Origin: Minisyncoccota bacterium
Lineage (GTDB): Bacteria; Patescibacteriota; Microgenomatia; PFEM01; JAFGMK01
Assembly (NCBI GenBank): GCA_016927565.1
Contig: JAFGMK010000008.1
Location: 1,115-65,114, forward strand
DNA length: 64,000 nucleotides
Direction: 5' to 3'
In this document: positions 1 through 17,643 of the stretch, piece by piece
How the letters are laid out: each line of letters opens with the position of its first letter
How positions within the stretch are numbered: position 1 is the stretch's first letter
Translations under genes and position numbers: made by a program
The notes under the pieces: generated by a model
Told to the model about the DNA's origin: nothing
Database searches by the model: none
Seen by the model: the letters and a program-made list of their open reading frames with translations, nothing else

Positions 1-166
1 TTTCCAATTCTTCAACTAAAACATGATCAGCCAAGGAATCACTAAAACGATAAATTCTTCTCTTAGTCAAAGCAATTTGAGCTTCAAGCTTTTTTCTTTC
101 TTGTTCTTCTCTGCTTAAAAGTAAACCTGCCCCTTCCGGTAGACGGGTAGGTTGTTCTTTTTGCCC
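1..166 (-). CDS. hypothetical protein, N-terminal 55 codons only (gene continues beyond window start)
   Basis: ATG at 164-166 (minus strand) opens a stop-free frame that runs to the window edge. It starts 18 nt downstream of the kinase gene on the same strand, consistent with operon continuation. Confidence 0.3.
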
Positions 167-184
167 TGACATCTTGTTCCTGTC

Positions 185-955
185 CTACAAGATCTTTAAT
201 TGTCTTAATAATTCGTTATTTTGTTCGGTAAAAATCTTGATTGTATCTTTGCCTAAATTAGGATTATACCTTTGGGACATAATATTGGAATTAATCATCG
301 CCAAAGTAAAAGATTGAAGATAATTTTTAGTCTTGGCCGAGGAAATAGTTTCTACTAGGAAAATGTTTAAATATTTTTTTATGTCCAGAGAGTGCCATCG
401 CCTTTGATAAGTCAACAGTTGAGCTAAATCCGCTAGAAAAAAGGAGGGAACGACATAATCAAAATCAATTAAATAGACTTTCTTTTTTTGAAAAATCCAA
501 TTAGTTGGCTTAGCATCCTTAAAGACTGAACTTTTAAAATTCTTTTTTAATTTATCAATTAATTTTTTCAAAAGCTCTTTCTCTATCACCAGGGAATTAT
601 TTTTAGCGTAAAGAATAATGTTTTTAAAAACCTTTTCCGGATATTTTCTTGCTGCCTCTTGGCTTTGTCTGTCGCTAAAAGCCTTAAAAATCTTAGCCAA
701 TTCCCCAATGCACAAAACCAGCTTTTCTTTTTCAAGATGCTCTGTTTTTTCTCCTTGAATTTTTTCAAAGATAATTTGCCTCTTTGTTTTCTCTATATGT
801 TCTATTTTAGGGACATTAAAACCAGCTTTCTTAAAGATTGGAATATATTTAAGCTCAGTTTCAAAGCGTTTTAAGCTTATATACTTTTTAAGTAAGCAAG
901 GTTTGCGGTTGTAGGTAATTTCCCAAGTTAAATTAAGAGATTCGTCCATTTGCAT
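185..955 (-). CDS. phosphotransferase-family kinase (APH/choline-kinase-like)
   Basis: 256-aa ORF. Catalytic-loop-like D-A-K-P-T-N and Mg-binding 'LIDFDY' motif typical of the aminoglycoside/choline kinase fold. Overlaps the upstream ORF by 23 nt. Confidence 0.6.
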   Translation of the reverse strand: MQMDESLNLTWEITYNRKPCLLKKYISLKRFETELKYIPIFKKAGFNVPKIEHIEKTKRQIIFEKIQGEKTEHLEKEKLVLCIGELAKIFKAFSDRQSQEAARKYPEKVFKNIILYAKNNSLVIEKELLKKLIDKLKKNFKSSVFKDAKPTNWIFQKKKVYLIDFDYVVPSFFLADLAQLLTYQRRWHSLDIKKYLNIFLVETISSAKTKNYLQSFTLAMINSNIMSQRYNPNLGKDTIKIFTEQNNELLRQLKIL

Positions 956-2000
956 CTTTTACTTTTTTTAGCTGTTTAATAATCACTTCTACCTGTTTTT
1001 CAACGGAAAATATTTTTAGCATCTCGAGTTGTTTTTTTAAAATACTTTTTATTTCTTGGTTTACAAGGGAGGTTAACCAGTTAATCTTTTTAACAATGTT
1101 TTCACTTGACCCAACTACTAATTCCGGCAGGATTATTTTTTCTTTTTGGTAATATTCTTCCGGCACCAGGGGGAGACAAAGTCCCCATAAGCTTTCAAAA
1201 AGCCGCTGGGTATACTGGCCGGATTGATAATATCTATCGGGAGCAATTAGTATAGTTAAGAAAGAATTCAGATAGACAGAGCAGACTTTGTTATACCCAA
1301 TTCGTCCCATAAAATTTAAGTTTTTACACTTATCGGGAAAATTTTTCCATTTTCCGTAAATAAAAACGGTGGAGTTAAGTAATTTTGTTGAATCGATATA
1401 GTATTTCTTGAAAGTCTCATCACGTTCGTAACGATTGCCAATATAAACAAGTTTGTTTTTTTTATTTTCTTTTGAATATCTATCCAAACTTCTGATCGCC
1501 TTTTGGACTTTGTCGTCATCGACGGGAAACAAAAGCTTTACTCTTCCCGGCCTTGGTTTAAGAGCGGCTTCAAAGATAACAACATTTCCTGGGAAAATTT
1601 TTTTTTCTAGTTTCTGATCTTTATCCCAAATCAGAATCGGAATTCTTTGGGTTTGATAATGCTTTAATAATTCATTCTGTCTATCCAAATCAGGTGTATA
1701 TTCAGTGCTTTTTTTATCAACTTGACAGTTTCTGCCTGGAATTGGCCAGCGATACTCCAGGAATAAAGCGTCTATGTCGGGCAAGTCCTCTCGGAAGGAT
1801 AGATAAGAACTGGAAAAATCATCGCCTGCTTCAATCAGGTCACGATTTTTCTGAAGCATATATATCGAAAAATTCCGTTTGATTAGCTCTTTTAATAAAA
1901 CCAGCCGATGACTTCTGCCTCCGTCGGGCGTATCAACAACTCCTTTGCCCAAAAACCCCCAACAACTGTAGCCTAGCTTAATTTTTCTTGGAGACGACAT
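933..2000 (-). CDS. hypothetical protein (operon member, function unknown)
   Basis: 355-aa ORF overlapping both neighbours by 23 nt, suggesting translational coupling. No diagnostic motif recognised. Confidence 0.5.
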   Translation of the reverse strand: MSSPRKIKLGYSCWGFLGKGVVDTPDGGRSHRLVLLKELIKRNFSIYMLQKNRDLIEAGDDFSSSYLSFREDLPDIDALFLEYRWPIPGRNCQVDKKSTEYTPDLDRQNELLKHYQTQRIPILIWDKDQKLEKKIFPGNVVIFEAALKPRPGRVKLLFPVDDDKVQKAIRSLDRYSKENKKNKLVYIGNRYERDETFKKYYIDSTKLLNSTVFIYGKWKNFPDKCKNLNFMGRIGYNKVCSVYLNSFLTILIAPDRYYQSGQYTQRLFESLWGLCLPLVPEEYYQKEKIILPELVVGSSENIVKKINWLTSLVNQEIKSILKKQLEMLKIFSVEKQVEVIIKQLKKVKDANGRIS

Positions 2001-2796
2001 AAATAACCTCGATATATTTATCTATAAAAAGATCACATTTTTTAAGTTTGTTTTTCCATTTCACAAGATAAACTTCTTGAGCTTTTTCTTTTAAATTGGA
2101 AATTAAGTTATATCTTTTAGTGGATAGGATGTATCGCAAAAGATCTTTAAAATTATCAGTAATAATTTGCGTTTCCAAGATATAGCTTTTGACTGAAAAC
2201 GAAGTTGTTGGAAAATTTTTTAATAAAATTTTTCTGGCGTTTTCCAGGCAGAAATGTTCTTCGTCACGAACATTTTTAACACTGTTTGTTAATTCCATCT
2301 CTTTGATAATTTTTGAAAAAAGTGATTCTAATTTGGGAAAAGTAAATTTAGATTTAGTAGTAATTAAGATTTTTCCCTGTTGGTTTAAAGTCATTTTTAG
2401 CTGTTTAAAAAAGAGTTTAAGATCCTTAACGTGATAGAGCATATGCATACAAAAAATATAGTCAAATTTTTGAGCGTATTTTGGAAAATTAACACCATCA
2501 TACAAACCATAGTCCAAGAAGTTTAAAATTTTGCAGGAAGAATTTTCGCAGATGTCTAAAGCGTGAAAGCTGTTGTTTGGGTAGACCGAATAAAGCTTTT
2601 TTAAAAAAGAGCAGTTTCCGCAGCCAATATCTAAAATTTGTTTGTTTTTTAGTTCGGGAAGGATTTTTAATAGGATATCTCTGATTGAATACTTTCTGTT
2701 TGAGTACTTTTTTAAAAAATTCCCCCGGAACTTGATTAAATTTTGGCTGCGGTAAAGTTTTTTTAAGTTTTTCGGGTTTTGAAAATTAAAAGCCAT
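1978..2796 (-). CDS. class I SAM-dependent methyltransferase
   Basis: 272 aa. Motif I 'ILDIGCGNCSFL' (glycine-rich SAM-binding loop) and typical methyltransferase length. Start overlaps the stop of the carbamoyltransferase. Confidence 0.65.
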   Translation of the reverse strand: MAFNFQNPKNLKKLYRSQNLIKFRGNFLKKYSNRKYSIRDILLKILPELKNKQILDIGCGNCSFLKKLYSVYPNNSFHALDICENSSCKILNFLDYGLYDGVNFPKYAQKFDYIFCMHMLYHVKDLKLFFKQLKMTLNQQGKILITTKSKFTFPKLESLFSKIIKEMELTNSVKNVRDEEHFCLENARKILLKNFPTTSFSVKSYILETQIITDNFKDLLRYILSTKRYNLISNLKEKAQEVYLVKWKNKLKKCDLFIDKYIEVIYVVSKKN

Positions 2797-4514
2797 TACT
2801 TTGATACCAGAATATTTTCATCGAGTAATAAATAATCTAAGCCGGAAGCGTAGAAAGTGGACAAAGCCTCCCTTGGGGTACGGCAAATAGGGTAGCCACG
2901 GAGATTAAAAGAAGTATTCAAAATAATCGGTATGCCCGTTATTTTGGCAAATGATTGAATGATGCTTTCAATAAAAGGATCTTCGTTCTTCTTTAGAATT
3001 TGGATTCTGCAAGTATTGTCAACGTGGGTCAACGCCCTCATTTTTGGCCTCCATTTTGGTTTTACCTTGTAGACAAAAGACATATATTTTCCCCCAATAT
3101 ACTCATTCTTATAATCGAGAACCCTTTTGACATCCTTATCAAGAATTATCCCGCCATAGGGTCTAAAATTTTCCCTATATTTGATGCAATTATTCAAATG
3201 GTCTTTCATTTGTTTTTTTTCGGGATTGGCAAGAATACTTCTGTGACCCAAGGCGCGGGGACCGCATTCCATTTCTCTTCTAAAAACAGCAATCACTTTT
3301 CCTTGGGCTAGTACTTTAGCGACAAATTCTGTGGGGTTATTTATTTCCCGATACTTAATTTGGTTATTTTTTAAAATGGTTTTAACTTCATTTTTGGAAA
3401 AATTTTCTCCCAAAAAAGCACTTTCTGTGAAATTAGGCAAACAATTGTTCACCTGATAGTAGAAATAAAGAGCTGAGCCCAAACTGCAGCCTGCATCGTT
3501 GGGAATAGGTGGTATAAAGATTTTCTTTTTGGGGAAGAGGTTACTTATTTTGCCGTTGGCAACACTGTTTTGGCCAACTCCTCCAGTTAAAACAACATTC
3601 TGATCTTTTATACTAGCTACTTGACGGCAGATAATTTTTTCAACTATGCGCTGGAGAGCATAAACTAAATCGTAATGTTGTTGTTTAAAACTTTCGTTGG
3701 ATTTTCGGAAGGGGCCAAATTTTTTTATAAATTCGTCTGTCAGCCTTTGCCCTTTTGGCTGAAAACTTCTTTCTAAAACCAGATTATCCTTTAATTTGAA
3801 TTTTCCGTTATCTAAAAATTCTACTGAATTAAGAAAATATTTCAGGTATCTTTCTTTCCCAAAACCCGCTAATGCCATTATTTTGCCATCATCACTTCCT
3901 CTTTTATAACCTAAGAGTTCAGTGATCGCTCCGTAAAGGTAGCCGATTGAATGTGGGTCTTTTTGTTCAAAGACTTTTTCTACTAATAATCTCTTTTTGC
4001 TTCTTGAAAATCTTAAGGCGAGACTGCAAATATCTTCGCCAACACTGTCATTAGAAATAACGACACAATTGTTAAAATTTGAGGCGTAATATCCATACCA
4101 AGCGTGAGCCAAGTGATGGTCAACCGGATGGATTTTTAAATGATCTTTTTTAAGAATTCTTTTAATTGAGCGGATTTTATTGGTAAAACTTAAAAGCCAT
4201 ACTAATTCGTAGTAAAATCTTTTTCTTTTAAATACGGAGGGATCTTTTAGCCAAAAAAGAGGGTTACTATGTTTAAGATAGCTTTTGAAACAACGGAGTG
4301 GGTTAAAATAAAAAGTGACATCGGTTATATCCTGGCTTGATATTTTCCCTTTTTGAAGGCAATAGTTAATTGCTCCCGTTGGAAAGTTGCCAGTGTGTTT
4401 TACATGATTAAATCTTTCTTCTTCAGAGAAAGCAACAATTTTATCGTTTAATATCAGGCAGGCGGAGGCATCATGATTAAAGGCGGTTATTCCTAAAATT
4501 ACTTTTTTGCTCAT
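2796..4514 (-). CDS. carbamoyltransferase (NodU/CmcH/TobZ family)
   Basis: 572 aa. N-terminal 'ILGITAFNHDASACLI...EEERF' signature of the NodU/CmcH carbamoyltransferase (Kae1-like) N-domain, followed by a C-terminal carbamoyltransferase-like region. Confidence 0.8.
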   Translation of the reverse strand: MSKKVILGITAFNHDASACLILNDKIVAFSEEERFNHVKHTGNFPTGAINYCLQKGKISSQDITDVTFYFNPLRCFKSYLKHSNPLFWLKDPSVFKRKRFYYELVWLLSFTNKIRSIKRILKKDHLKIHPVDHHLAHAWYGYYASNFNNCVVISNDSVGEDICSLALRFSRSKKRLLVEKVFEQKDPHSIGYLYGAITELLGYKRGSDDGKIMALAGFGKERYLKYFLNSVEFLDNGKFKLKDNLVLERSFQPKGQRLTDEFIKKFGPFRKSNESFKQQHYDLVYALQRIVEKIICRQVASIKDQNVVLTGGVGQNSVANGKISNLFPKKKIFIPPIPNDAGCSLGSALYFYYQVNNCLPNFTESAFLGENFSKNEVKTILKNNQIKYREINNPTEFVAKVLAQGKVIAVFRREMECGPRALGHRSILANPEKKQMKDHLNNCIKYRENFRPYGGIILDKDVKRVLDYKNEYIGGKYMSFVYKVKPKWRPKMRALTHVDNTCRIQILKKNEDPFIESIIQSFAKITGIPIILNTSFNLRGYPICRTPREALSTFYASGLDYLLLDENILVSK

Positions 4515-4580
4515 AAAAATATAGATTTATTTTAGGTTGGTTTCCCAAAATTGTTTTATTATATCATTGGTTAGTTATTT

Positions 4581-5048
4581 TTGGCCGAGTTTGAAATGGA
4601 TATGAAATTAAAATATCCCTATTTACCCAGGGGGAGAAAAATTTTATACGCTTCGGCCGATAATCCTTTTATGAAGGAAGCGACTGAAGTGAAGAAAAGT
4701 TGCCCCTGTCTCAAGCAGCCTTCTGGTGCTGTTGTGGTCAAAGATGGGAAGATTATTGGTCAGGGTAAAAATGCTACTAGAAAAGTAGAAGTTTGCCCCA
4801 GGAATAAACAAGGATATGGTACAGGTAAGGGATATCATCTTTGCCGGGAAATTTGTGGCCAAGAAGCTCACACTGAAATAGCAGCCATAAAAGATGCTCA
4901 AAGACAAGGTTTTGACACAAGGGGTGCTGATCTTTATTTAGATGGTCATTGGTGTTGTTGTAAGAATTGCTGGGACGTGATGATTGGAGCAGGGATAAGA
5001 AATGTTTATTTAAGGAAAAATGCTCATTTCTTGTACAGGAAATCTTAA
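4581..5048 (+). CDS. cytidine/deoxycytidylate deaminase-family zinc-binding protein
   Basis: 155 aa. 'HTE' (H-x-E) followed about 30 residues later by 'CCCKNC' (PC-x-x-C-like) zinc ligand arrangement of the CDA fold. Confidence 0.55.
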   Translation: MAEFEMDMKLKYPYLPRGRKILYASADNPFMKEATEVKKSCPCLKQPSGAVVVKDGKIIGQGKNATRKVEVCPRNKQGYGTGKGYHLCREICGQEAHTEIAAIKDAQRQGFDTRGADLYLDGHWCCCKNCWDVMIGAGIRNVYLRKNAHFLYRKS

Positions 5049-5097
5049 GTATATCAAACTATATCAGCCTAAAAATAAGACACTCATTTTTTTATAC

Positions 5098-5192
5098 TGT
5101 CTCATTTGTCTCACTTCGCTTCGCTCAGTGTAAACATTTACGCTTGAGTTATAATGACTAAAAGGTTCAAGACCACGCTGCTCAGCACACCT
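5098..5192 (+). repeat. conserved ~95-nt non-coding element, copy A (contains a TATAAT-like box), immediately 5' of a GNAT gene
   Basis: Near-identical blocks shared with 13750-13862: 'CATTTGTCTCACTTCG', 'CTTCGCTCAGTGT', 'AACATTTA', 'GAGTTATAATGACTAAAAGGT', 'AGACC..CTGCTCA'. Confidence 0.55.
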
Positions 5193-5228
5193 TCGGATTT
5201 CTTTGGAATTTTGCTACAATTTTTATAT

Positions 5229-5744
5229 ATGATATCGATCCGACAAGAAAAACCAGAGGATTATCAAAGTATTTATAGTATCAACAAGTTTGCGTTTGAT
5301 AGTGAAGTTGAGGCAAAATTAGTCAATAATCTGCGTAAAACTAAAGGGTTTATTCCTAATCTTTCTCTAGTTGCTGTAAAAGATAGTAGGGTAGTTGGTC
5401 ATATCTTATTTAGTGTTATCCATATTCAAACGGATACTAATTATGTTCCAGCTTTAGCCCTGGCACCAATGGCAGTATTACCAGAATACCAAAGACAAGG
5501 AATCGGGTCACAGCTTATTCGTGAGGGTATAAAAAAATGCAAAGAATTAGGGCATAAAATAATTATTATTGTTGGACACCCCAATTATTACCCCCGTTTT
5601 GGATTTTCTCCTGCAGTTGAAAAAGGATTGAAACTACCTTTTGAAGCACCAGAGGAAGCATTTATGGTGTATGAGATTATTCCTCAAGCGCTTAAAGACA
5701 TAACAGGGATGGTGGTATATCCACCTGAATTTGCGGAAGTATAG
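5229..5744 (+). CDS. GNAT family N-acetyltransferase
   Basis: About 171 aa from ATG 5229 (MISIRQ...). Motif A 'QRQGIGSQLIREGI' (Q/R-x-x-G-x-G/A) is typical of GNAT acetyl-CoA binding. The longer ORF from 5154 would read through the conserved upstream element. Confidence 0.75.
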   Translation: MISIRQEKPEDYQSIYSINKFAFDSEVEAKLVNNLRKTKGFIPNLSLVAVKDSRVVGHILFSVIHIQTDTNYVPALALAPMAVLPEYQRQGIGSQLIREGIKKCKELGHKIIIIVGHPNYYPRFGFSPAVEKGLKLPFEAPEEAFMVYEIIPQALKDITGMVVYPPEFAEV

Positions 5745-5754
5745 CTTATAAAAT

Positions 5755-5785
5755 AAGTTCGAATAGCGTCTATGTTTGCCAGCGC
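5755..5785 (+). repeat. conserved ~30-nt 3' flank of GNAT gene, copy A
   Basis: 'GTTCGAATAGCGTCTATGTTTGCCAGCG' matches 14492-14520 ('ATTTCGAATAGCGCTTATACTCGCCAGCC'). Both lie 14-26 nt after the GNAT stop codons. Confidence 0.45.
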
Positions 5786-5866
5786 GATCTTTGAGGTTCT
5801 GGGCAACCGAGGTTTCTAAGTAGCTTGATTTAGCTTGTAAGAAGCAATTGTTCTTTTAAGCGTTTT

Positions 5867-6325
5867 TTGAATCAAATGGTTTTTAAAGTTGAAATCACAG
5901 CCAATGAAGTAGCTTGGTATGGTGCAATAGTTGCAACTGTTAGTATGGCTGTTTCTTTGCTCAATCATCTTCGTGATAAAGCAACAATAAAATTAAAGGT
6001 ATCTAAAGTCTTCTTTGCTTATCGTAGTGGCCTAGATAAAAGTCTTAAATTAATGGCAAAAGCAGTCAACACGGGCAGAAGACCTATTACCATTACAAGC
6101 GTAGGATTTTCCCTATCTAATAAAAGAGATATTGTTATAACTAACGATAATATTATTCCCAATTTACCTGCTAAATTAGCTGAAGGCGAACAGCTTCAAT
6201 TTTGGGTAGAAGAAAATAAATTACTATCTCTTTTAAAAAAGAGTAAAACTGAGTTGAATTGTGCATGGTGTCAAGATGCTGCTGGTAAATTATATAAAAA
6301 GAAATATAGGATTAAACCTGAATAG
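5867..6325 (+). CDS. hypothetical protein
   Basis: 152-aa ORF with plausible spacing. No motif recognised. Confidence 0.4.
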   Translation: MNQMVFKVEITANEVAWYGAIVATVSMAVSLLNHLRDKATIKLKVSKVFFAYRSGLDKSLKLMAKAVNTGRRPITITSVGFSLSNKRDIVITNDNIIPNLPAKLAEGEQLQFWVEENKLLSLLKKSKTELNCAWCQDAAGKLYKKKYRIKPE

Positions 6326-6337
6326 ATTTTAAGAGCC

Positions 6338-6812
6338 ACAACCTTCAAGGTACTTTTTCCCTTTGTACCTCGGTATAAAGTCTACTAGAATGGATATGTG
6401 CCCGGCAGAAAAACGATTATAGCAACTGGTCAAATTTATCATCTCTTTAATCGCGGTAGTTCTTTTCAACCAGTTTTTTAAATGTTTTTGATTGCCGCCG
6501 CTTTTTAAAAACGATTAATTTTTACCGTTTTTCTTCTCGCTCAATTAAAAAAGAAAGAACTAATTTCAATCTTTTCTTTCTGTTTAATGCCTAACCATTA
6601 TCATCTCCCGGTCAGACAAGAAAAAGAAAACGCTATTTCAAAATTTATGTCTCAAGTCCAAAATAGCGATACTAAATATTCAATATTAAGAGAAAAAAAT
6701 AAAAAAGACTATCAAGAATTCATTTTTAATCAGGCAGACTATCAACGAAAATTAGAAAAGATTAAACACTTAACTTGGGAAAACTAAACCCCAAGGTATA
6801 CCCTGAAGGTTG
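6338..6812 (+). mobile_element. degraded HUH (RAYT/IS200-like, COG1943-type) transposase element with flanking inverted repeats
   Basis: Inverted repeats 'ACAACCTTCAAGGTA' (6338-6352) and 'TACCCTGAAGGTTGT' (6798-6812). The internal gene is broken (see pseudogene feature). Confidence 0.45.
6421..6787 (+). pseudogene. HUH tyrosine transposase (RAYT-like) pseudogene, frameshifted
   Basis: Frame fragment 'ATGQIYHLFNRGSSFQPVF' (G-x-YH-x-x-x-RG motif) ends in a stop. About 50 codons downstream a second frame carries 'NHYHLPV' (HxH motif) and runs as a 66-aa ORF (6587-6787). The spacing matches intact RAYTs, but the frames are interrupted by stops. Confidence 0.5.
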
Positions 6813-6870
6813 TATCTAAGGTTATATCTATCCGGGTCAGGTAGCTTTTGATAATATTGCTATAGAGTAA

Positions 6871-7578
6871 ATGAAATCAAAAATTTATATAGGCAGAGAC
6901 CAAAAGAATGATAAAGTGTTTTTGGATCTAAACAAGGAAAAAATTTATAGCATTCTCCTTGCGGGTCTGTCCGGTTCCGGAAAAAGCATCTTTCACTTTA
7001 GCCTTTATCACCAGCTTCTTCAACAAAATACTCCAGTTGAGCTTGGCTTTGTGTTCTTTGATATGACTAAAGTAGATTTTGCTAAGTTTCCCTATCCAGC
7101 CTATTTGTATAAACCTATAATTAAGTCTTTAGATGAAGCTTTAGATTGTTTTGAAGAGCTTGGAAAAGAAAGTAAGCTGCGGTGTCAAGGCAAGGTCGAC
7201 CGCCGAAGATCCATTCTAATCCACATCGAAGAGTGTGATCTAATGTATTATGACCGAAAACGGTTTGAGCAGGCTTGGATTGATATTGCCTCTGGTAAAG
7301 ATAAAAACAACATCTATGTAGTATTTTCTTCCAGTCGCTGCTGCCCTGAGGTCTTCACCAGAACTATTCTTAATAATGTAGACCTTAAGATACTTTTTTC
7401 TCCTGGAGGGTCAGGTTTTGATAAGTCTTTATACGACGAATGTTCGCTTTATTTGTTTAGTAAGAGATTTAAAAATACCCCTAGAGAGTGGCAAAGAGTG
7501 TTGATGACAGATCAGAGAGAAATTTTGTGCCAAGGTTATTCGGAAGAAGAAGTTAAGGAAGTTAAAAGCATATTTTAA
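6871..7578 (+). CDS. compact FtsK/SpoIIIE-like P-loop ATPase
   Basis: 235 aa. Walker A 'LLAGLSGSGKS', Walker B-like 'ILIHIEECDLMY', 'YVVFSSSR' (equivalent to FtsK 'VLATQRPS'), and an order of motifs colinear with the FtsK motor domain. Confidence 0.6.
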   Translation: MKSKIYIGRDQKNDKVFLDLNKEKIYSILLAGLSGSGKSIFHFSLYHQLLQQNTPVELGFVFFDMTKVDFAKFPYPAYLYKPIIKSLDEALDCFEELGKESKLRCQGKVDRRRSILIHIEECDLMYYDRKRFEQAWIDIASGKDKNNIYVVFSSSRCCPEVFTRTILNNVDLKILFSPGGSGFDKSLYDECSLYLFSKRFKNTPREWQRVLMTDQREILCQGYSEEEVKEVKSIF

Positions 7579-7671
7579 ATTGAAAGAGGTAGAAATTTAA
7601 GGAAAAAAGTAAGAAAAGATGCAAAATAGAAAATCAACAAATTTATCTTTAAGTCAGTCTGGAGTATAAAA

Positions 7672-8619
7672 ATGGGATTTCTTGGTAATTTTTTCGGACC
7701 GGATATAAAAAAACTCTTAGAAGACGAACAGTACGAGAAAATCAGGAAACTTGCTCTTAAAGACGAAAGAGTCGTGCCTCGGCTTATTGCTCAACTGGAA
7801 TCAAAAAACTCACAAATGGTAGCGCGAGCGGCCAACCTTTTGGGAGAGATAAATGACCCAAGAGCCCTGCCGGCACTGGATCGTGTGGTTGGAGAAAAAA
7901 GCATTGATGATACGCATGTGTCGGCCACACTAGGGAGAATGAGCCTCTCTCTTCCTGGCTCTTTTCCGCAATATTCGGCCAGGAAGTATATTGATAAAGC
8001 AGCTTTCGCTGCAGCCAAGAAGGCACTTTCTAAAATAATTCACGGTGATGAAAAACCTTTAGTTCTTGCGTTGAAAGATAAAAATACAGCGGTTAGGGCA
8101 AAAGCGGCAGAAGCATTAGGTACTAGTCATCCTAGCGAGTATGCAATTCAACCTCTAATTGCTGTTTCAAACCAAGACGGAGATTTGCGTGTCCGAAGAA
8201 AAGCAAGATTGGCCCTAATGAAAATAGGCAAGCCGGCAGTTCAGTTTTTGGTTATTGCCTTAGGAGACAAGAATCCACTCTATAGAAGACAAACGGCATG
8301 GACTTTATACTGGTTGTGGGATCGGCATAAGGTTGAACGGGCAGCTGAAGCATTTCTTGAAGCTTTGGATAAAAAAGATATCTCAGTGGTAGCCGGGGCT
8401 TATGGTTTTTTTATCTTGCGAGGTGAAGTTGGCACAGAACCTATCCTTATTAAGGCTCTTGAAAACCACGGGCATCCGGAGATGGCTGAGCATTTCATAA
8501 ATTGTGGGAATACTCAATTAGAAGAAGCTGGAGAAAATTGGTCTGCCAGTCATGGTTTTCAGGTTAGATCTTCTCATTTTGGCGGAGGTCCCAAGTGGGG
8601 AGCCGGAAGAGAAGAGTAA
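7672..8619 (+). CDS. HEAT-repeat (PBS lyase HEAT-like) protein
   Basis: 315 aa. Repeated 'VR..AA.ALG.I.DPRA...L' units (e.g. 'ARAANLLGEINDPRALPAL', 'VRAKAAEALG', 'VRRKARLALMKIG'). Confidence 0.65.
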   Translation: MGFLGNFFGPDIKKLLEDEQYEKIRKLALKDERVVPRLIAQLESKNSQMVARAANLLGEINDPRALPALDRVVGEKSIDDTHVSATLGRMSLSLPGSFPQYSARKYIDKAAFAAAKKALSKIIHGDEKPLVLALKDKNTAVRAKAAEALGTSHPSEYAIQPLIAVSNQDGDLRVRRKARLALMKIGKPAVQFLVIALGDKNPLYRRQTAWTLYWLWDRHKVERAAEAFLEALDKKDISVVAGAYGFFILRGEVGTEPILIKALENHGHPEMAEHFINCGNTQLEEAGENWSASHGFQVRSSHFGGGPKWGAGREE

Positions 8620-11029: not shown

Positions 11030-12295
11030 TCACGGGCGTAATTTTTTATAATAAATTCCGCATTTCTCTGAATCCTTAGTATTCTTATATCTCTCATCGT
11101 CCCAAACAAGATGAACATTATTTTCTGAATCAATCGCTATTAAAGGAAATATAGAACCGTATTTAGCATTGGTTACTCTAATATCATCGTTTAGAGCCTT
11201 TCCGTTATTATCAAGCTTCTTGTAATAAATCTCGTAGTTAGTCGCCCCTGACTTAAATTCCTCTTCGTTTCTATCATCTCTCCACGCCAGGCAGACATTA
11301 TCGTTTGAATCAATCGCAATCGAAGGATCTCCGCAATAAATCTTTGCCTCAACTAATTTAATCTCGCCCGTCAAATCAACTCCGTCCTTGCCTAGTTTTT
11401 TATAGTAAATATCCCATTTTTTGGGTCTTCTATTATCCTGCCAGGCAATATGAACATTATCGCTGGAATCAAGAGCAATTGAAGGGCTTACGGCAGAAAA
11501 TCCTTCCGATATTTTGATGTCATCAGTCAGGCTATCTCCATTCTGATCCTGCTTTTTATAATAGATAACATCGTCGTTTCCCCAAACGAGGTGGATATTA
11601 TTGTTTGAATCAATGGCAATTAAAGGCCTTTCGCTGCTCCTCCCACCAGCCTTTCCTATTCTGATTTCACCACTTAAGTCGTTACCATTATTATCCAACT
11701 TCTTGTAGCAAGCCTCCTCACTGGAATTATCCACCCAAGCAATGTAAACATTATCATGTGAGTTAACTGCAATAGAAGGTGGTTGTATAATACTGGTGGT
11801 AGTTGCCACCTTGATCTCGCTACCCAGGCTATTGCCGTTATTGTCCAGCTTCTTGTAGTAAATTCCCATTACCTCATTTGACAAACCTTGCCACGCGATA
11901 TGGATATTGGTATTTGGATCAATCACCATTGAAATGTCATAGGCCTTATCGGTTGTGACTCTAACATTATCCACTAAGGGATTGCCGTTATTATCTAATT
12001 TTTTGTAATAAACTCCTGCCAGTTCGGGAATACTATTTGTTGCCACTATGTAAACATTGTCATTTGAGTCAAGTGCCATTGAGAATTCGCTTGAAAACCC
12101 ACCGCCGGTTAATACTCCAACCTCACCAGAAGGATGTACATTAGCTATCTGTTGCTTAATAGAGCCAATCACTCCTGGTTCTTCCGCGGCGGGAGTTTTG
12201 TCTGATTTTCGCACGAATCTAACTGCTAAAAAAGCTCCGGTTATCAAAATTATTAAAAATATCAATATCCCTAAATTTTTGGTATTTTTTCCCAT
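11030..12295 (-). CDS. secreted/anchored tandem-repeat protein (about 8 copies of a ~48-aa repeat; beta-propeller-like)
   Basis: 421 aa with an N-terminal hydrophobic anchor. Repeat units end in 'YYKKLDNNGN.L...I.V' and begin 'IA(I/L)DS.DN.HI.W' (YYKKLDNNGNPL, YYKKLDNNGNSL, YKKLDNNGNDL, YYKKQDQNGDSL, YYKKLGKDGVDL, YYKKLDNNGKAL, YYKKL). Confidence 0.6.
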   Translation of the reverse strand: MGKNTKNLGILIFLIILITGAFLAVRFVRKSDKTPAAEEPGVIGSIKQQIANVHPSGEVGVLTGGGFSSEFSMALDSNDNVYIVATNSIPELAGVYYKKLDNNGNPLVDNVRVTTDKAYDISMVIDPNTNIHIAWQGLSNEVMGIYYKKLDNNGNSLGSEIKVATTTSIIQPPSIAVNSHDNVYIAWVDNSSEEACYKKLDNNGNDLSGEIRIGKAGGRSSERPLIAIDSNNNIHLVWGNDDVIYYKKQDQNGDSLTDDIKISEGFSAVSPSIALDSSDNVHIAWQDNRRPKKWDIYYKKLGKDGVDLTGEIKLVEAKIYCGDPSIAIDSNDNVCLAWRDDRNEEEFKSGATNYEIYYKKLDNNGKALNDDIRVTNAKYGSIFPLIAIDSENNVHLVWDDERYKNTKDSEKCGIYYKKLRP

Positions 12296-13600: not shown

Positions 13601-13749
13601 ATTTTGAATTCACCCAGCGAAGAAAAGCTATTGTGATAAACGAAAAGCCAATTTCGGAGACTAGGAGGATTTTAATCAATCTATTGGCCTCTCGAAGTGA
13701 TGTATATCAAAGTATATCACTCAAAAAACGAGATATTCCCTTTTTATAG

Positions 13750-13862
13750 TGTTCCATTTGTCTCACTTCGACTTCGCTCAGTGTTATAACATTTAGCCTC
13801 AGAATAAAACATTGGGAATTGTGAGTTATAATGACTAAAAGGTCCCAGACCGATCTGCTCAA
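13750..13862 (+). repeat. conserved non-coding element, copy B (same as 5098-5192, with a ~21-nt insertion), upstream of the second GNAT gene
   Basis: Shares 'CATTTGTCTCACTTCG(A)CTTCGCTCAGTGT', 'AACATTTA', 'GAGTTATAATGACTAAAAGGTCCCAGACC', 'TCTGCTCA' with copy A. Confidence 0.55.
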
Positions 13863-14072
13863 AAAAAGGCAGAAGAATTTTTTGTTCGTTATTAAAACCT
13901 AACGCAACCAATGAAGATTAAAGAGGCGCATAAATATATTAAAGTACACTGGAAAGTTTAGGGGAGTAGTGTAAAGAGTCTAGCTTAGTCAATTTTTCAG
14001 AAGCCGGGCTGAGGTTACGACGTTAAAAGTTATAAGGGCAATTGGACACCAGACCATGAAGATCGGCACTAT

Positions 14073-14468
14073 ATGATAAGAAAAGCCAAAGCATCTGATT
14101 CCAAAAAAATTGAGTCCCTAATGAAATCGGTTAGGGGTTTTTGGGATAAATCGTGGCGGAATAATGTCATTCAATCGGGAATAAAAGCTTCAAACGGCTT
14201 ATCTTTTGTTTATGAGGAAAATGGCAACATCTTAGGTTTTATTTGCGCACACGATTTGGGTTTCAGAGGCTATTTGAGCGAATTAATCGTGGCTTCCGGA
14301 AAACAACATCAAGGAATAGGGAAAAAACTGCTAGTAAAAGTAGAAAGCGAACTTAATAAAAGAGGATGCTGTGTTTTAATCTCTGATGTTTGGAAGGGCG
14401 CTAAAAGGTTTTATGAAAACTCCGGCTGGAGTGAGCCTGATGTGGTCTTGCTCAGGAAAAAATTATAG
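14073..14468 (+). CDS. GNAT family N-acetyltransferase
   Basis: 131 aa. 'QHQGIGKKLLVKVE' acetyl-CoA-binding motif A. Not similar in sequence to the GNAT at 5229. Confidence 0.75.
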   Translation: MIRKAKASDSKKIESLMKSVRGFWDKSWRNNVIQSGIKASNGLSFVYEENGNILGFICAHDLGFRGYLSELIVASGKQHQGIGKKLLVKVESELNKRGCCVLISDVWKGAKRFYENSGWSEPDVVLLRKKL

Positions 14469-14491
14469 TCATCTTTACAATTTAAAAAATA

Positions 14492-14520
14492 ATTTCGAAT
14501 AGCGCTTATACTCGCCAGCC
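14492..14520 (+). repeat. conserved 3' flank of GNAT gene, copy B
   Basis: 'TTTCGAATAGCGCTTATACTCGCCAGCC' matches the flank at 5755-5785. Confidence 0.45.
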
Positions 14521-14796
14521 ACATTGGGCGCCCCGGTGGCCCAGCTGCCTCGATTGCGCTCGTGATACTTGCTTTAAACTGCTGATTTATCACTCAAACA
14601 TTCGGGCCCTACTTTTGGTATCCCGGACATTCTGATTTTTTAGTTAGCGCAAATCACTCCTGCGAGATGGTCGCGAAGTCTATAATGGATTCCAGAATTC
14701 GGACACCGGCGTAAGATACCATTGATATGGTAAGTAATTGTCGGAGAATTTGCTAATGGACTAATAGTCATACTATGATGTATAAAAGAAAAGGGT

Positions 14797-17643
14797 ATGG
14801 ATTTAACCAAGAGGAAAATAATACTTTTAATCATCTTCTTAACAAGTTTTTTTACCTTTGTCGAATCTGTTTCCGCTCAAGCTTCTTCTGATTGGTATAT
14901 GGCCGGGGCTAATCAGCAAAGGACCAGCTGGGTTTCTGAAGAGGTAAAGGGATTTTTATCACCCCGCTGGTATGTGAATTTTCACCCCTGGATCAACACC
15001 AAAATTCAGCCGATTGGTTCTCACGGTTTGATTTATGTTTCTACTGCAAGAGGGCTTTACGCTCTGAATGCTAACAACGGGAATGTCGCTTGGGTTTATC
15101 CGACCGAGATGGCGTTAGGCCATTCACCGACAATTGTGGGCGATGTCTTGTATGTCGGCGGTTATGATAAGAAGATCCATGCGATCAGAGCGAATCCTAA
15201 TACCAGTTCTTTGCCTGTCGACAGTAAAACCGGCTACCGGATCAATAATCAGATTGTTTGGATTTTTAATGGCGGAGAGGCGGGTTTTGAAACTAATCCC
15301 CTGGTAGTTGACGGGTCAGTTTATGCGGGCAATCGTGATGGCTATTTTTATGCTTTGAATGCTTCAAACGGAAACTTGAAATGGAAGTATAAAACTAATG
15401 GTCCGATTCTCTTTTCTGCCGCCTATAAAGATGGGGTGATTTACCTGGCCTCAAACGATGCTCATGCGTATGCTTTGAATACTAACGGAAGCTTAAAATG
15501 GAAATCTGCCAAGCTGCCAATTGCCGGATTTTATTCATTTTGGCCGGTAGTTTATACTGACCATCAAAGCGGCCGGGATTATGTTATTTTTACTTCTGCC
15601 CACAATTACTTGGCCGACGGTTTCCTGCGAATCAACGAAGTTAAATTTGATTATACCGAATTAGTTGAAGTTTTTCACGCCCACGGTTGTACTCAAGAAA
15701 ATCAGCTTTGCAGTCCCCTGCGTAATGAGCCGTATCCCGGTGGTTGGGTTAGCGGCACGCAAACTATGGACTTGGGTTTCGTCAGTGATTATTTTACTCA
15801 AAAGCCTTACAGGAGAACTTATTTGGTTCTTCGTGTAAGTGACGGGGCTGATTATACTGCAGATGGATACCGGCAACCGCCGTTTCTTTGGGGTGGCAGT
15901 ACTCATAGCGGCAGCAAGTATCCTCCAATGGTGGGATCAGATAATGTCTTATACCAATATGCTAACTATCTGGGTGATCAATATATTGCTGAGGGCCGGA
16001 CGGTAGGCTGGAAATTTGGGACTTCAATTGTCAGTAGAATTGCCCAGTCAAGTAGCGCTATTGACGAACTTTATTCGGTCGCTGGCGGCGGTGATTTGTC
16101 TTATTTTCAACATTGGGAAAGCGAGGCGGGTGCCTTCAATTATGTCAATGGCGGAGAAGAAATCTACTATCAATATGGTGATAATTTTCCCTCAGGGTGC
16201 GGCAGAATGTATCCGGATTGGGTTGCTTATGGCAAGGAGAATGAAGATGGAGCGATTAATGGAGTTTATGGCGGCCCGCAAAGTCCGCCGATTCCTTACA
16301 ATGGGAAGGTTTATTTATTTAATAGCAATTGTCTTTTGGCTCTGGAGAGAGGCGGTTCGGCCAACTCCCCTCTAGCGACGATTCAGCCGGTTGAGAGTGA
16401 GCAGGACGGGCTTGTATTTAATGATGCCGTGCTTGAACAAAAACTCACAAATGAAATTCAAAAAATGATTGATTCCGGTCACTTGAGGCCGGGCTATCAT
16501 GGTTCTACTCAGGGCGACTGGATGATGGCAAGTGAGCATGACTATCTTAATCATTATTTTTCCAACCCCGGGGAAACTATCTATACCCTGCTTTTAGCTT
16601 TGGATGTTTTAAGAAGCAAGCCGATTGCCAATAATCTTAGGAATTACATTCAGCAGGAATATAATGCTTATCCGCCCCATAGTATTGCCCACATCGGCTG
16701 GAATTCCGGAGCGAAAAGAGAAGCCTATGATACGCTTCCCAATGTTCAATCGGCGATGAATAATTTTGGATCTTTGAGTTCTACAGGTAATCATTGGAGG
16801 CTTCCTCCGTTTTCAGTGTATGCTCTTTGGTTATACGCCAGAGAATTCGGCAATGCCAATCAAATTTTAAATCAGGTTCAGAATAAGCTTGATTCACCTC
16901 CGACCAATGACTTTGCAAACTATCCTTTTGTCCACAATGCTTATATTGCCGGCTACATCGGTTATTGCAAGCTGGAAGAACTAGCCAACACGGGCAGCAA
17001 TAATCAGGGAATTCCCCAAGGATGTTCGAAGCAAAGCACTCTCAATAATCTTTTAAGCTCAAGAGTCAGCGGTTTTGATAAGAATAATCATCTTACAGGA
17101 TGGCACGATTATTTTCGCGCCTTCACCGGTTCAAGAAATTTTATGTTCATGGTGCCGGAGCTGGCAGATTATATGAATCAGCATATTCTTGGCAAAGTCA
17201 ATGAAGCTGTTGATGAGTATAATTACTATATTCCCGGCTGGTTTGTTTCTAAATATGACAGTACTTTTGAAGAGGGTATGATTCAGTACCTTTATGATTA
17301 TCCCGCTCTTTTTCAGGCCAAAGCCTACATTCTTAAACAATCTCGAGAGGAATTAAGCAAGTATCTGGATGTCCCGGCATTTGAAAGAGGAGATCTCTTC
17401 TATATTCAAAACCTCATAGCGGCGATTAAAGCAAGTTCATCGTCACCGCCAGTCACTCCTACCCCCAGTTCATGTTCAGCCAATGTCAACAATGACGGTT
17501 CGGTCGGAATGCTTGATTTTCTTCAAGTAATTGGCGTTTGGGGAAACAGGGGAGCCCGACTGGTTGAAGATATCAATAATGACGGCAAAGTGAACATAAT
17601 TGATTTGGGAAGAGTGATAAAAGAGTGGGGGAGCAATTGTTAA
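14797..17643 (+). CDS. secreted PQQ-repeat beta-propeller protein with C-terminal dockerin-like module
   Basis: 948 aa with a signal peptide. PQQ-type repeats ('YALNANNGNVAWVY', 'YALNASNGNLKWKY', 'YALNTNGSLKWKS'). C-terminal pair of Ca-loop motifs 'NVNNDGSVGMLD' and 'DINNDGKVNIID' followed by 'W G' helices (dockerin type I pattern). Paralog of 27977-30931. Confidence 0.7.
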   Translation: MDLTKRKIILLIIFLTSFFTFVESVSAQASSDWYMAGANQQRTSWVSEEVKGFLSPRWYVNFHPWINTKIQPIGSHGLIYVSTARGLYALNANNGNVAWVYPTEMALGHSPTIVGDVLYVGGYDKKIHAIRANPNTSSLPVDSKTGYRINNQIVWIFNGGEAGFETNPLVVDGSVYAGNRDGYFYALNASNGNLKWKYKTNGPILFSAAYKDGVIYLASNDAHAYALNTNGSLKWKSAKLPIAGFYSFWPVVYTDHQSGRDYVIFTSAHNYLADGFLRINEVKFDYTELVEVFHAHGCTQENQLCSPLRNEPYPGGWVSGTQTMDLGFVSDYFTQKPYRRTYLVLRVSDGADYTADGYRQPPFLWGGSTHSGSKYPPMVGSDNVLYQYANYLGDQYIAEGRTVGWKFGTSIVSRIAQSSSAIDELYSVAGGGDLSYFQHWESEAGAFNYVNGGEEIYYQYGDNFPSGCGRMYPDWVAYGKENEDGAINGVYGGPQSPPIPYNGKVYLFNSNCLLALERGGSANSPLATIQPVESEQDGLVFNDAVLEQKLTNEIQKMIDSGHLRPGYHGSTQGDWMMASEHDYLNHYFSNPGETIYTLLLALDVLRSKPIANNLRNYIQQEYNAYPPHSIAHIGWNSGAKREAYDTLPNVQSAMNNFGSLSSTGNHWRLPPFSVYALWLYAREFGNANQILNQVQNKLDSPPTNDFANYPFVHNAYIAGYIGYCKLEELANTGSNNQGIPQGCSKQSTLNNLLSSRVSGFDKNNHLTGWHDYFRAFTGSRNFMFMVPELADYMNQHILGKVNEAVDEYNYYIPGWFVSKYDSTFEEGMIQYLYDYPALFQAKAYILKQSREELSKYLDVPAFERGDLFYIQNLIAAIKASSSSPPVTPTPSSCSANVNNDGSVGMLDFLQVIGVWGNRGARLVEDINNDGKVNIIDLGRVIKEWGSNC

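Follow-up and report, generated by a model that had tools for sequence, protein, structure and literature searches.

We analysed a 64,000-nucleotide stretch (hereafter the window) of contig JAFGMK010000008.1 from a Minisyncoccota bacterium of the Patescibacteria, in which a non-coding element precedes two acetyltransferase genes of the GNAT family, here termed GNAT1 and GNAT2. A first-pass annotation had described this element as a duplicated, conserved, non-coding sequence of ~95 nt, possibly a ligand-responsive or regulator-bound leader specific to acetyltransferase genes. The element is a genuine conserved non-coding one, and further copies exist in other genomes: homologous elements were found in other Patescibacteria-type contigs, and hidden Markov models (HMMs) detected at least 18 cores in eight loci overall. 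It very likely represents an interspersed repeat family and not a GNAT-specific leader. The best reading, which we consider probable, is a family of modular non-coding interspersed repeats in Patescibacteria (Microgenomates-type) that would act at the DNA level.

The two clear copies in the window, A and B, are direct repeats (5049–5184 versus 13702–13861; BLASTN, E = 1.7e-19), with 80% column identity in a pairwise alignment and a longest exact match of 22 nt. Copy A, a long form on the plus strand (5049–5188; nhmmer E = 1e-32), starts directly after the stop codon of a dCMP-deaminase gene (5046–5048) and consists of module a (TATATCAAACTATATCAG), module b (a T-run plus TATACTGTCTCATTTGTCTCA), an inserted micro-repeat, a remnant of module c, and a core, TGAGTTATAATGACTAAAAGGTTCAAGACCACGCTGCTCAGC, at 5145–5186 (+; core HMM E = 4e-12). 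Copy B, also a plus-strand long form (13702–13865; nhmmer E = 2.6e-31), has its core at 13822–13863 (+; core HMM E = 3e-12) and lies in the divergent gap between a TPR gene on the minus strand and GNAT2 on the plus strand. CATTTGTCTCACTTCG occurs exactly at 5103–5118 and 13755–13770, and GAGTTATAATGACTAAAAGG at 5146–5165 and 13823–13842, two matches to a 20-mer for which 0.03 are expected by chance; no high-scoring copy besides A and B was found in the 64-kb window. The identical blocks that the first-pass annotation had quoted all occur where it placed them, exactly twice in the window, and its insertion in copy B relative to A was recovered (~21–22 nt, plus 1-nt and 2-nt indels; pairwise alignment). 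The duplication therefore stood, but not its extent, as BLASTN places the start of the repeat ~50 nt further 5'. The two downstream genes are, as had been proposed, both GNAT acetyltransferases (Pfam) and unrelated (no BLASTP alignment at E ≤ 100). Given that GNAT1 and GNAT2 are unrelated, the copies do not represent the end of a segmental duplication spanning the open reading frames (ORFs); blastn and tblastx between the GNAT1 and GNAT2 regions found only the element and a 38-nt block past the stop codons to be shared.

Copies were searched for in the window and in fetched loci with one HMM for the long form and another for the core, both of which were then iterated. A one-genome-per-species scan with the 20-mer led to L004, and a metagenome scan with TATAATGACTAAAAGGTNNNAGACC to L005 and L006, while L013, L008, L011, L009, L019, L020, and L027 were fetched as loci of GNAT1 or GNAT2 orthologues. 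L004, a 615-kb chromosome labelled 'uncultured Gammaproteobacteria' and the only true relative from the exact 20-mer scan, carries nine cores in 8 kb (at 184, 257, 1432, 2728, 2794, 3496, 4438, 5575, and 5952), and L013 carries three in 7 kb (at 2136, 2596, and 3927); L005, L006, L008, and L027 have one core each. Bases beyond the exact 20-mer are conserved in L004, and L005 and L006 share 12 further conserved bases (NNNCYGCTCAGC) beyond the search pattern. Given that the pattern did not demand these 12 bases, L005 and L006 are genuine homologues. Matches to the 20-mer in L002 (Heimdallarchaeota) and L003 (Clostridia) were attributed to chance only. A phage or plasmid origin was rejected, as nothing similar was found in phage, plasmid, and viral-contig collections, and a literature search on integrons, repeats, or MITEs (miniature inverted-repeat transposable elements) in Patescibacteria or the candidate phyla radiation returned nothing relevant.

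All members of the family have in common a ~45-nt 3' core ending in GGTYCTAGACCGNCCTGCTCAGC, with similarity stopping sharply after CAGC. Its invariant part is GGTYCTAGACC-G-NN-CTGCTCAGC, upstream of which sub-families carry GAGTTATAATGACTAAAA, GGTTATGGGATCAAAT, or AGTATGGGATCGAAGG, and the same core is joined to different 5' halves (TATAAT/GACTAAAAGG, TATGGG/ATCAAATGG, or GTATGGGATCGAAGGGGCC). The full element measures 110–165 nt and is composed of optional 5' modules a, b, and c followed by the core, while short forms consist of the core only. Module a (TATATCAAANTATATCA) is present in three long forms (A, B, and L027), module b is a T-run plus TATAsTGTCTCATTTGTCTCATTT, and module c is AGCCTYGA followed by a variable stretch of 10–20 nt. 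Indels of 21–26 nt are tolerated within the element, and cores can stand in tandem, 55–65 nt apart (L004, 184/257 and 2728/2794). Identity between genomes is 84–86%, versus 81–89% within genomes, with absolute values inflated by the gap-lenient alignment. Given that between-genome identity equals within-genome identity while the GNAT proteins are only 71–78% identical to their orthologues, the element sequence appears constrained and not merely young, which points to selection on the element sequence itself.

Strand polarity is the most robust regularity of the family: all 11 copies beyond the first of each locus lie on the strand of that first copy (11/11; one-sided p = 0.0005), although L004 has approximately equal numbers of plus- and minus-strand genes. 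In seven of eight loci, the strand that bears the element has a positive GC skew, a count confounded with the orientation chosen for the loci. All copies are intergenic and fill spacers, often within a few nucleotides of the preceding stop codon. A co-oriented ORF lies upstream at 9 of 14 informative independent sites, often with 0–15 nt between its stop and the element, and a co-oriented gene lies downstream at ~11 of 16 sites, while five sites face a convergent or antisense gene. A pure promoter rule and a pure terminator rule both fail.

Genomic context also spoke against the proposed specificity for acetyltransferase genes, since L004, L005, and L006, which were found by sequence alone, have no GNAT gene nearby, and some copies are flanked by convergent genes or by two genes of the minus strand. 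Other neighbours include alpha/beta-hydrolase-like, MltG, SET-domain, and DUF5678-like genes and a convergent methyltransferase gene. The link to GNAT genes holds in part: orthologues elsewhere carry the element upstream (GNAT1 in L013, L008, and L011; GNAT2 in L027), but it is not specific to them. Before GNAT1 orthologues, L013 (Woesebacteria RBG_13_36_22) carries a complete element and L008, L011, and L009 a partial one, while L019, where a tRNA is found instead, and L020 have none, so that orthologous GNAT1 loci exist with the element (window, L013, L008, L011) and without it (L019, L020).

Tests for RNA structure were uniformly negative. Rfam gave no match in the window at the gathering score and only noise at E ≤ 10 around A and B, and over the copies in L004–L006, L008, L013, and L027 no family was identified, with tRNAs and noise as the only matches overall. 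The minimum free energy of A and B on both strands showed no excess stability relative to shuffled sequences (z = −0.84, −0.02, −0.18, and +1.11). RNAalifold on four, six, seven, and eight copies yielded consensus energies of −0.13 to −3.0 kcal/mol with zero compensatory pairs, and the only consensus fold was a 4-bp mini-hairpin, GGUY CNA RACC. The covariation score of this mini-hairpin plus a module c stem was 0.083, versus a shuffled mean of 0.088; that stem, CTCAGA...TCTGAG, was rejected as a candidate, as it is perfect in one copy and not kept in the others. A ligand-responsive or structured leader RNA is thus contradicted by the missing Rfam match, z-scores near 0, and the lack of both consensus structure and covariation, and the last of these is the outcome that the first-pass annotation had itself named as counting against a leader.

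Within module b, copy A carries a 23-nt micro-repeat resembling repetitive extragenic palindromes (REPs), CACTTCGCTTCGCTCAGTGTAAA (5112–5134, +), which among family members is shared only with copy B, where a 26-nt version, CACTTCGACTTCGCTCAGTGTTATAA, occupies the same position (13764–13789, +). This insert, CACTTCG(A)CTTCGCTCAGTGT(TAT)AA(A), follows the GTCT of module b and is absent from the elements in L004, L013, and L027. It belongs to a separate small repeat, C[AC]CTTCG...GCTCAG[GT]GTAAA, which also occurs in L005 (~147, −), L009 (15819), and L011 (7836–7935 and 15646–15720, with a 35-nt tandem array of 2.4 units), and whose 4-bp stem co-varies between copies (CACT/AGTG versus CCCT/AGGG). 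Because both A and B carry this derived 23/26-nt insert, they are recent sister copies made within this genome, and the shared insert indicates that one of the two arose in this lineage as a copy of the other.

A second repeat is located after both GNAT genes. A 3' block, AAAATAAGTTCGAATAGCGTCTATGTTTGCCAGC, directly follows the GNAT1 stop (5746–5788, +; nhmmer E = 1.6e-9), and its sister begins 14 nt after the GNAT2 stop (14482–14524, +; E = 1.5e-6). The two share 82% identity over 38 nt and are closer to each other than to the blocks of other genomes. Members of this ~40-nt family, AAAATAGGTTCGAAC..GTCCACGGTTNGCAGC, with homology ending sharply at CAGC, were also found in L011 (969, 1426, 7146, 7801, and 16806), L013 (3565 and 4519), L019 (3918), and L008 (739). 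They follow GNAT1 orthologues in L008, L011, L013, and L019, as well as other plus-strand genes in L011 and L013, are always co-oriented with the gene, 0–60 nt past its stop, and occur in the window only after the two GNAT genes; L027 has no 3' block after GNAT2. Homology between core and 3' block (AAAA.GGTTCTA.AC...CAGC) was considered and rejected, being no better than in shuffled controls. Both flanks of GNAT2 are therefore sister copies of the GNAT1 flanks, although the genes between them are unrelated, and the chance of the only other 3' block in 64 kb landing in this gap is ~1–2%. The sole hairpin-like arrangement observed is in L011, where two inverted 3' blocks at 7146–7236 form a ~90-nt imperfect, bulged palindrome (minimum free energy −33 kcal/mol) that separates GNAT1 from the GNAT gene following it.

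GNAT1 encodes a 171-aa acetyltransferase (5229–5744, +; Pfam) that truly begins at 5229 and not at 5154, where the ORF had been started: the NCBI protein (P0001, 100% identical, from a Candidatus Pacebacteria metagenome-assembled genome on a 106-kb contig) and all orthologues begin at 5229 with 171 aa. In seven orthologous loci, the 25 nt before the GNAT1 ATG include a conserved TTTTGMTACAAT, an extended −10 box whose last base lies 8 nt from the ATG; in the window this predicted extended −10 promoter is TGCTACAAT (5212–5220, +), consistent with a leaderless or near-leaderless mRNA. This predicted promoter sits between element and ATG and is kept in all orthologues whether or not the element is present, from which we infer that GNAT1 is very probably transcribed from a promoter of its own into an almost leaderless mRNA. 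Given this conserved extended −10, the suspicion of the first-pass annotation that the start at 5154 was mis-called proved right; this start is artefactual and stems from an ATG that lies within the repeat. The core of the AATGG sub-family likewise supplies an ATG, producing spurious ORFs or N-terminal extensions that read MVLDRPAQ or MVLDRPAL at L013 2160–2234 and 2619–2738 and at L008 150–737 (P0022), and these peptides could mark further copies in protein databases.

GNAT2 encodes a 131-aa acetyltransferase (14073–14468, +; Pfam) unrelated in sequence to GNAT1, and its start at 14073 is backed by an N-terminus, MIRKAK.SDS.K..SLMKS, conserved in L027 and in 131-aa homologues; the public GNAT2 model (115 aa) looks too short, starting 16 codons late (window 14073–14120). 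L027 contains a GNAT2 orthologue of 76% identity, and the spacer before this gene is occupied throughout by a complete element, from 3 nt past the upstream stop to 2 nt before the ATG. In the window, a degenerate long form, copy C (~13930–14069, +), abuts the GNAT2 start codon and is collinear with the L027 element in the pieces AATATATTAAAGTACA, AGTTATAAGG, CCAGACC, and GGCACTATATG. Its alignment to L027 scores 143, versus 91 ± 15 for shuffled sequences (3 of 1,000 shuffles reach 143), while with the family HMM alone copy C was not significant (E = 0.73). Copy C probably represents the ancestral element of the GNAT2 locus, as in L027, and copy B is probably an extra copy, placed between copy C and the divergently oriented TPR gene. 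Unless GNAT2 is co-transcribed with the upstream gene, any promoter and 5' untranslated region (UTR) that it uses must lie within the element in L027 and copy C.

Taken as an interspersed repeat family, the element would act as double- or single-stranded DNA, not as folded RNA, and a trans-acting factor would recognise its sequence specifically and directionally. This factor could be a recombinase- or transposase-like enzyme that copies the element, or a DNA-binding protein that selects for it, and effects on neighbouring genes would be secondary, for example read-out from a fortuitous TATAAT in A and B or the provision of the GNAT2 promoter and 5' UTR. We offer such a factor-recognised, duplicative mechanism at the DNA level only tentatively, with distinctly less confidence than the repeat family itself. 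Several observations weigh against the interspersed repeat reading. No terminal inverted repeats were found between the element ends (repeat search, folds, and flanks inspected), nor any extended palindrome, and the flanks of eight long copies showed no visible target-site duplication, with a fuzzy left boundary and no empty site to compare. Integrase, transposase, and reverse transcriptase were not found among window ORFs of at least 120 aa, and neither these enzymes nor a Phage_integrase or recombinase appeared in the precomputed Pfam annotations of the fetched loci (L009–L027). Except for A and B, copies within a genome are no more alike than copies between genomes, counter to recent bursts of transposition. 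Approximately two-thirds of the copies have a co-oriented gene downstream and approximately two-thirds a co-oriented ORF upstream, so that promoter- or terminator-like roles are possible. The 64-kb window holds only three copies, all at two GNAT genes, which is unexpected for a purely random repeat, and the paired sister flanks of GNAT1 and GNAT2 do not fit a simple interspersed-repeat model. Finally, the GNAT-containing loci came from GNAT searches and are subject to ascertainment, and the strand bias could result in part from replication or gene-strand bias.

Of the alternatives, the best surviving, though in our judgement unlikely, is a propagated promoter/operator module, a 'mobile promoter' copied before accessory genes that would form a regulon. 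Such a module would comprise a −10 box, direct repeats upstream of it as activator sites, and, a short way downstream, the palindrome GGTYCNAGACC as operator. Copies A and B do contain a perfect TATAAT, the element includes the direct repeats TATATCA-N3-TATATCA and two copies of GTCTCATTT, orthologues of both GNAT genes carry it, and it abuts the GNAT2 ATG in L027 and copy C, where it would hold any GNAT2 promoter and 5' UTR; the co-oriented genes downstream at ~11 of 16 independent sites are also as expected. However, the claim that the element at least supplies a promoter found no support, as a −35/−10 consensus scan of 5049–5190 and 13702–13865 found no site in either copy, and the TG upstream of TATAAT in A and B is 3 nt too far away for an extended −10. 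TATAAT is present in only 6 of 16 aligned copies, the other 10 having TATAAG, TATAGG, TATGGG, TACAAG, or no such hexamer while the downstream core is intact. In addition, GNAT1 and the L004 and L006 genes are each preceded by a −10 box of their own that lies downstream of the element, five sites (L004 2728/2794, 3496, and 5952; L005; L013 2136) face a convergent or antisense gene, and tandem copies 55–65 nt apart make little promoter sense. A and B may be weak promoters, but the part that selection preserves is not the −10 box.

The sister flanks shared by GNAT1 and GNAT2 motivated a second alternative, in which cores and 3' blocks would be directly oriented, hairpin-independent recombination sites that bracket single small accessory genes. 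GNAT1 and GNAT2 would then have been acquired or exchanged as cassettes, in a manner similar to integron attC sites but without their hairpin. Such a system would account for the bracketing of both GNAT genes by the same two repeats at spacings of 558 and 618 nt, for the sharp 3' homology edge ...CAGC of both repeat families, and for consecutive one-strand sites in L004 and L013 that bracket one gene each, whatever the orientation of the gene. The gene neighbourhood of GNAT1 differs in every genome compared, and the gene content (GNAT, DUF1801, SET, and DUF5678-like) is typical of cassettes. Nevertheless, neither RYYYAAC/GTTRRRY ends nor an imperfect hairpin, the features of attC, were seen, the similarity of core and 3' block was not significant, and no recombinase was found among window ORFs of at least 120 aa or in the annotated loci. 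The bracketed genes include the housekeeping gene MltG, the window holds no array, and GNAT2 in L027 is without a 3' block. We regard this cassette system as improbable.

On a par with it, and to our minds just as doubtful, stands a gene-boundary signal, an unstructured C-over-G sequence past stop codons that would end or insulate upstream transcription, for example via Rho or another RNA- or DNA-binding factor. Long forms begin 0–15 nt past a co-oriented stop in A, L027, L013-3844, L004-2728, and L004-5520, while in L004-5952, L006, and L008 the stop is overlapped by the core, and the gene that comes next has a promoter of its own downstream of the element. A, B, and L027 contain more C than G despite an overall G-rich strand, and the RNA is predicted to be unstructured. 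On the other hand, a co-oriented ORF is missing upstream of 5 of the 14 informative sites (B; L004-3496 and -4438; L013-2136 and -2596), the minus-strand genes of L004 are not accompanied by minus-oriented copies, and rut-type sites are not normally 85% conserved across genera. A hairpin plus U-tract is missing except by chance in copy B, where a terminator-like hairpin with T-run, TCTGCTCAAAAAAAGGCAGA (13854–13883, +), a consensus match only and specific to this copy, overlaps the end of the core. An acetyltransferase-specific riboswitch or structured cis-regulatory leader, suggested by the element's position upstream of two unrelated GNAT genes and their orthologues and by a mini-hairpin, GGUYCNAGACC, that tolerates U.G/C-G exchange, is already largely refuted by the RNA tests above (no Rfam match even at E ≤ 10, a consensus energy of approximately zero, no compensatory pairs in eight long or seven core copies), by the tolerance of large indels, by the location of most copies away from GNAT genes, and by a GNAT1 mRNA that probably begins downstream of the element, and we give it hardly any weight.

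Further candidates for the origin of the element were tried and rejected. A protein-coding remnant on the plus strand does not fit, as two of three frames are stopped inside the core in every copy, and the third (ATG at 5154) continues through A and B but is interrupted by a TAG in L004, L005, and L006. On the minus strand, the frame AEQxGLEPFSHYNS runs through the core without a stop, yet its substitutions show no synonymous bias, it ends at varying positions, and it lacks a conserved start. A tRNA-like or att site was dismissed, since ARAGORN found no tRNA in the window and the GGTTCNAGACC motif misfits a T-arm. Likewise, an island with A and B as attL and attR is contradicted by the lack of an integrase, the indels by which A and B differ, and the multi-copy nature of the family elsewhere.

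Several features of the window lie outside these questions. Positions 1–8000 have a GC content of 33–36%, versus 40–46% in the rest of the window, and encode carbamoyltransferase, methyltransferase, and APH-like kinase genes, with a homologous Logan contig running on into a sulfotransferase gene; this region is possibly an island for glycan modification. A gene for a 235-aa FtsK/SpoIIIE-like P-loop ATPase (6871–7578, +) is situated between copies A and B, with no other mobility genes nearby. A Logan contig that is an independent assembly of the same population (L001, SRR13394437) ends inside copy A, its position 1 corresponding to window 5117, at a CTTCG-CTTCG duplication. A repeat-induced assembly break was rejected as the cause because the longest stretch of identity between A and B is only 22 bases, and strain heterogeneity at the micro-repeat insert is a possible explanation. 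Two large PQQ/beta-propeller genes, at 14797–17643 (+) and 27977–30931 (−), are inverted paralogues that bracket ~10 kb and are 72–78% complementary over stretches of 69–357 nt. A 421-aa ORF at 11030–12295 (−) contains at least five internal repeats of 150–180 nt (YYKKLDNNG... units) with weak matches to SBBP/BNR beta-propellers.

Patescibacteria genomes are tiny and streamlined (~0.6–1 Mb), and repeated non-coding DNA is therefore unexpected in them. A non-palindromic, one-strand element with ~85% conservation across genera implies a conserved reading factor, which could be a mobility enzyme or a chromosome-organising or transcription-boundary protein; to our knowledge, no such factor is known for Patescibacteria. 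If the cassette reading were true, it would mean that a major radiation of uncultivated bacteria exchanges genes by a new route. In practical terms, the element misleads gene callers, as in the start at 5154 and the 'MVLDRPA...' extensions such as P0022, and could be mistaken for a riboswitch.

Among known systems, the element resembles BOX elements of Streptococcus pneumoniae and bacterial interspersed mosaic elements (BIMEs) of E. coli in its short non-coding modules of fixed order, optional or repeated, and in its intergenic copies near gene ends, tandem clusters, and nesting of other small repeats, with BOX and BIME reaching dozens of copies. However, BOX and BIME form stable stem-loops (REP palindromes, boxA/boxC pairing), while the element has no significant palindrome or folding energy, and they are species-specific, while the element is ~85% conserved across genera with single-strand polarity within loci. 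Similar to REP and BIME, it is extragenic, present in many copies, and located near gene 3' ends (9 of 14 sites past a co-oriented ORF), but in place of a 20–40-nt palindromic stem-loop the core has a 4-bp stem only, and the REP-like micro-repeat at 5112–5134 is a different element. Correia elements of Neisseria and MITEs are likewise non-autonomous 100–160-nt repeats beside genes, with presence or absence at orthologous loci, and can carry outward-facing −10 boxes, which in Correia elements and MITEs alter the expression of neighbours. They differ in being bounded by terminal inverted repeats and accompanied by a target-site duplication (TA or another); neither was seen here, and no partner transposase was found. 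Palindrome-associated transposable elements (PATEs) derived from IS200/IS605 and the REP/RAYT system are similar in being small and strand-specific, with asymmetric ends and without terminal inverted repeats or target duplications. PATE and REP/RAYT, however, have subterminal imperfect hairpins of 8–12 bp at both ends and a Y1 HUH transposase, whereas the element has a 4-bp mini-hairpin near the 3' end and the window no such gene.

Integron attC sites and clusters of attC sites lacking integron-integrases (CALIN) share with the element same-orientation sites past stop codons, one ORF per interval (seen in L004 and L013, but not as an array in the window), conserved ends with a variable middle, and small accessory genes such as GNATs. 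The element differs from attC in having no R''/R' boxes, no folded bottom-strand hairpin, and no IntI, and while attC conserves structure, the element conserves sequence. Putative mobile promoters are homologous upstream regions before non-homologous genes, and the element similarly places the same upstream sequence before unrelated genes, within and between genomes, but many of its copies are not upstream of a co-oriented gene and the −10 box is not its conserved part. Given that the features that define BOX/BIME, Correia/MITE, and PATE/REP (palindromes, terminal inverted repeats, target duplications, partner enzyme) were looked for and not found, the element should not be filed under any of them.

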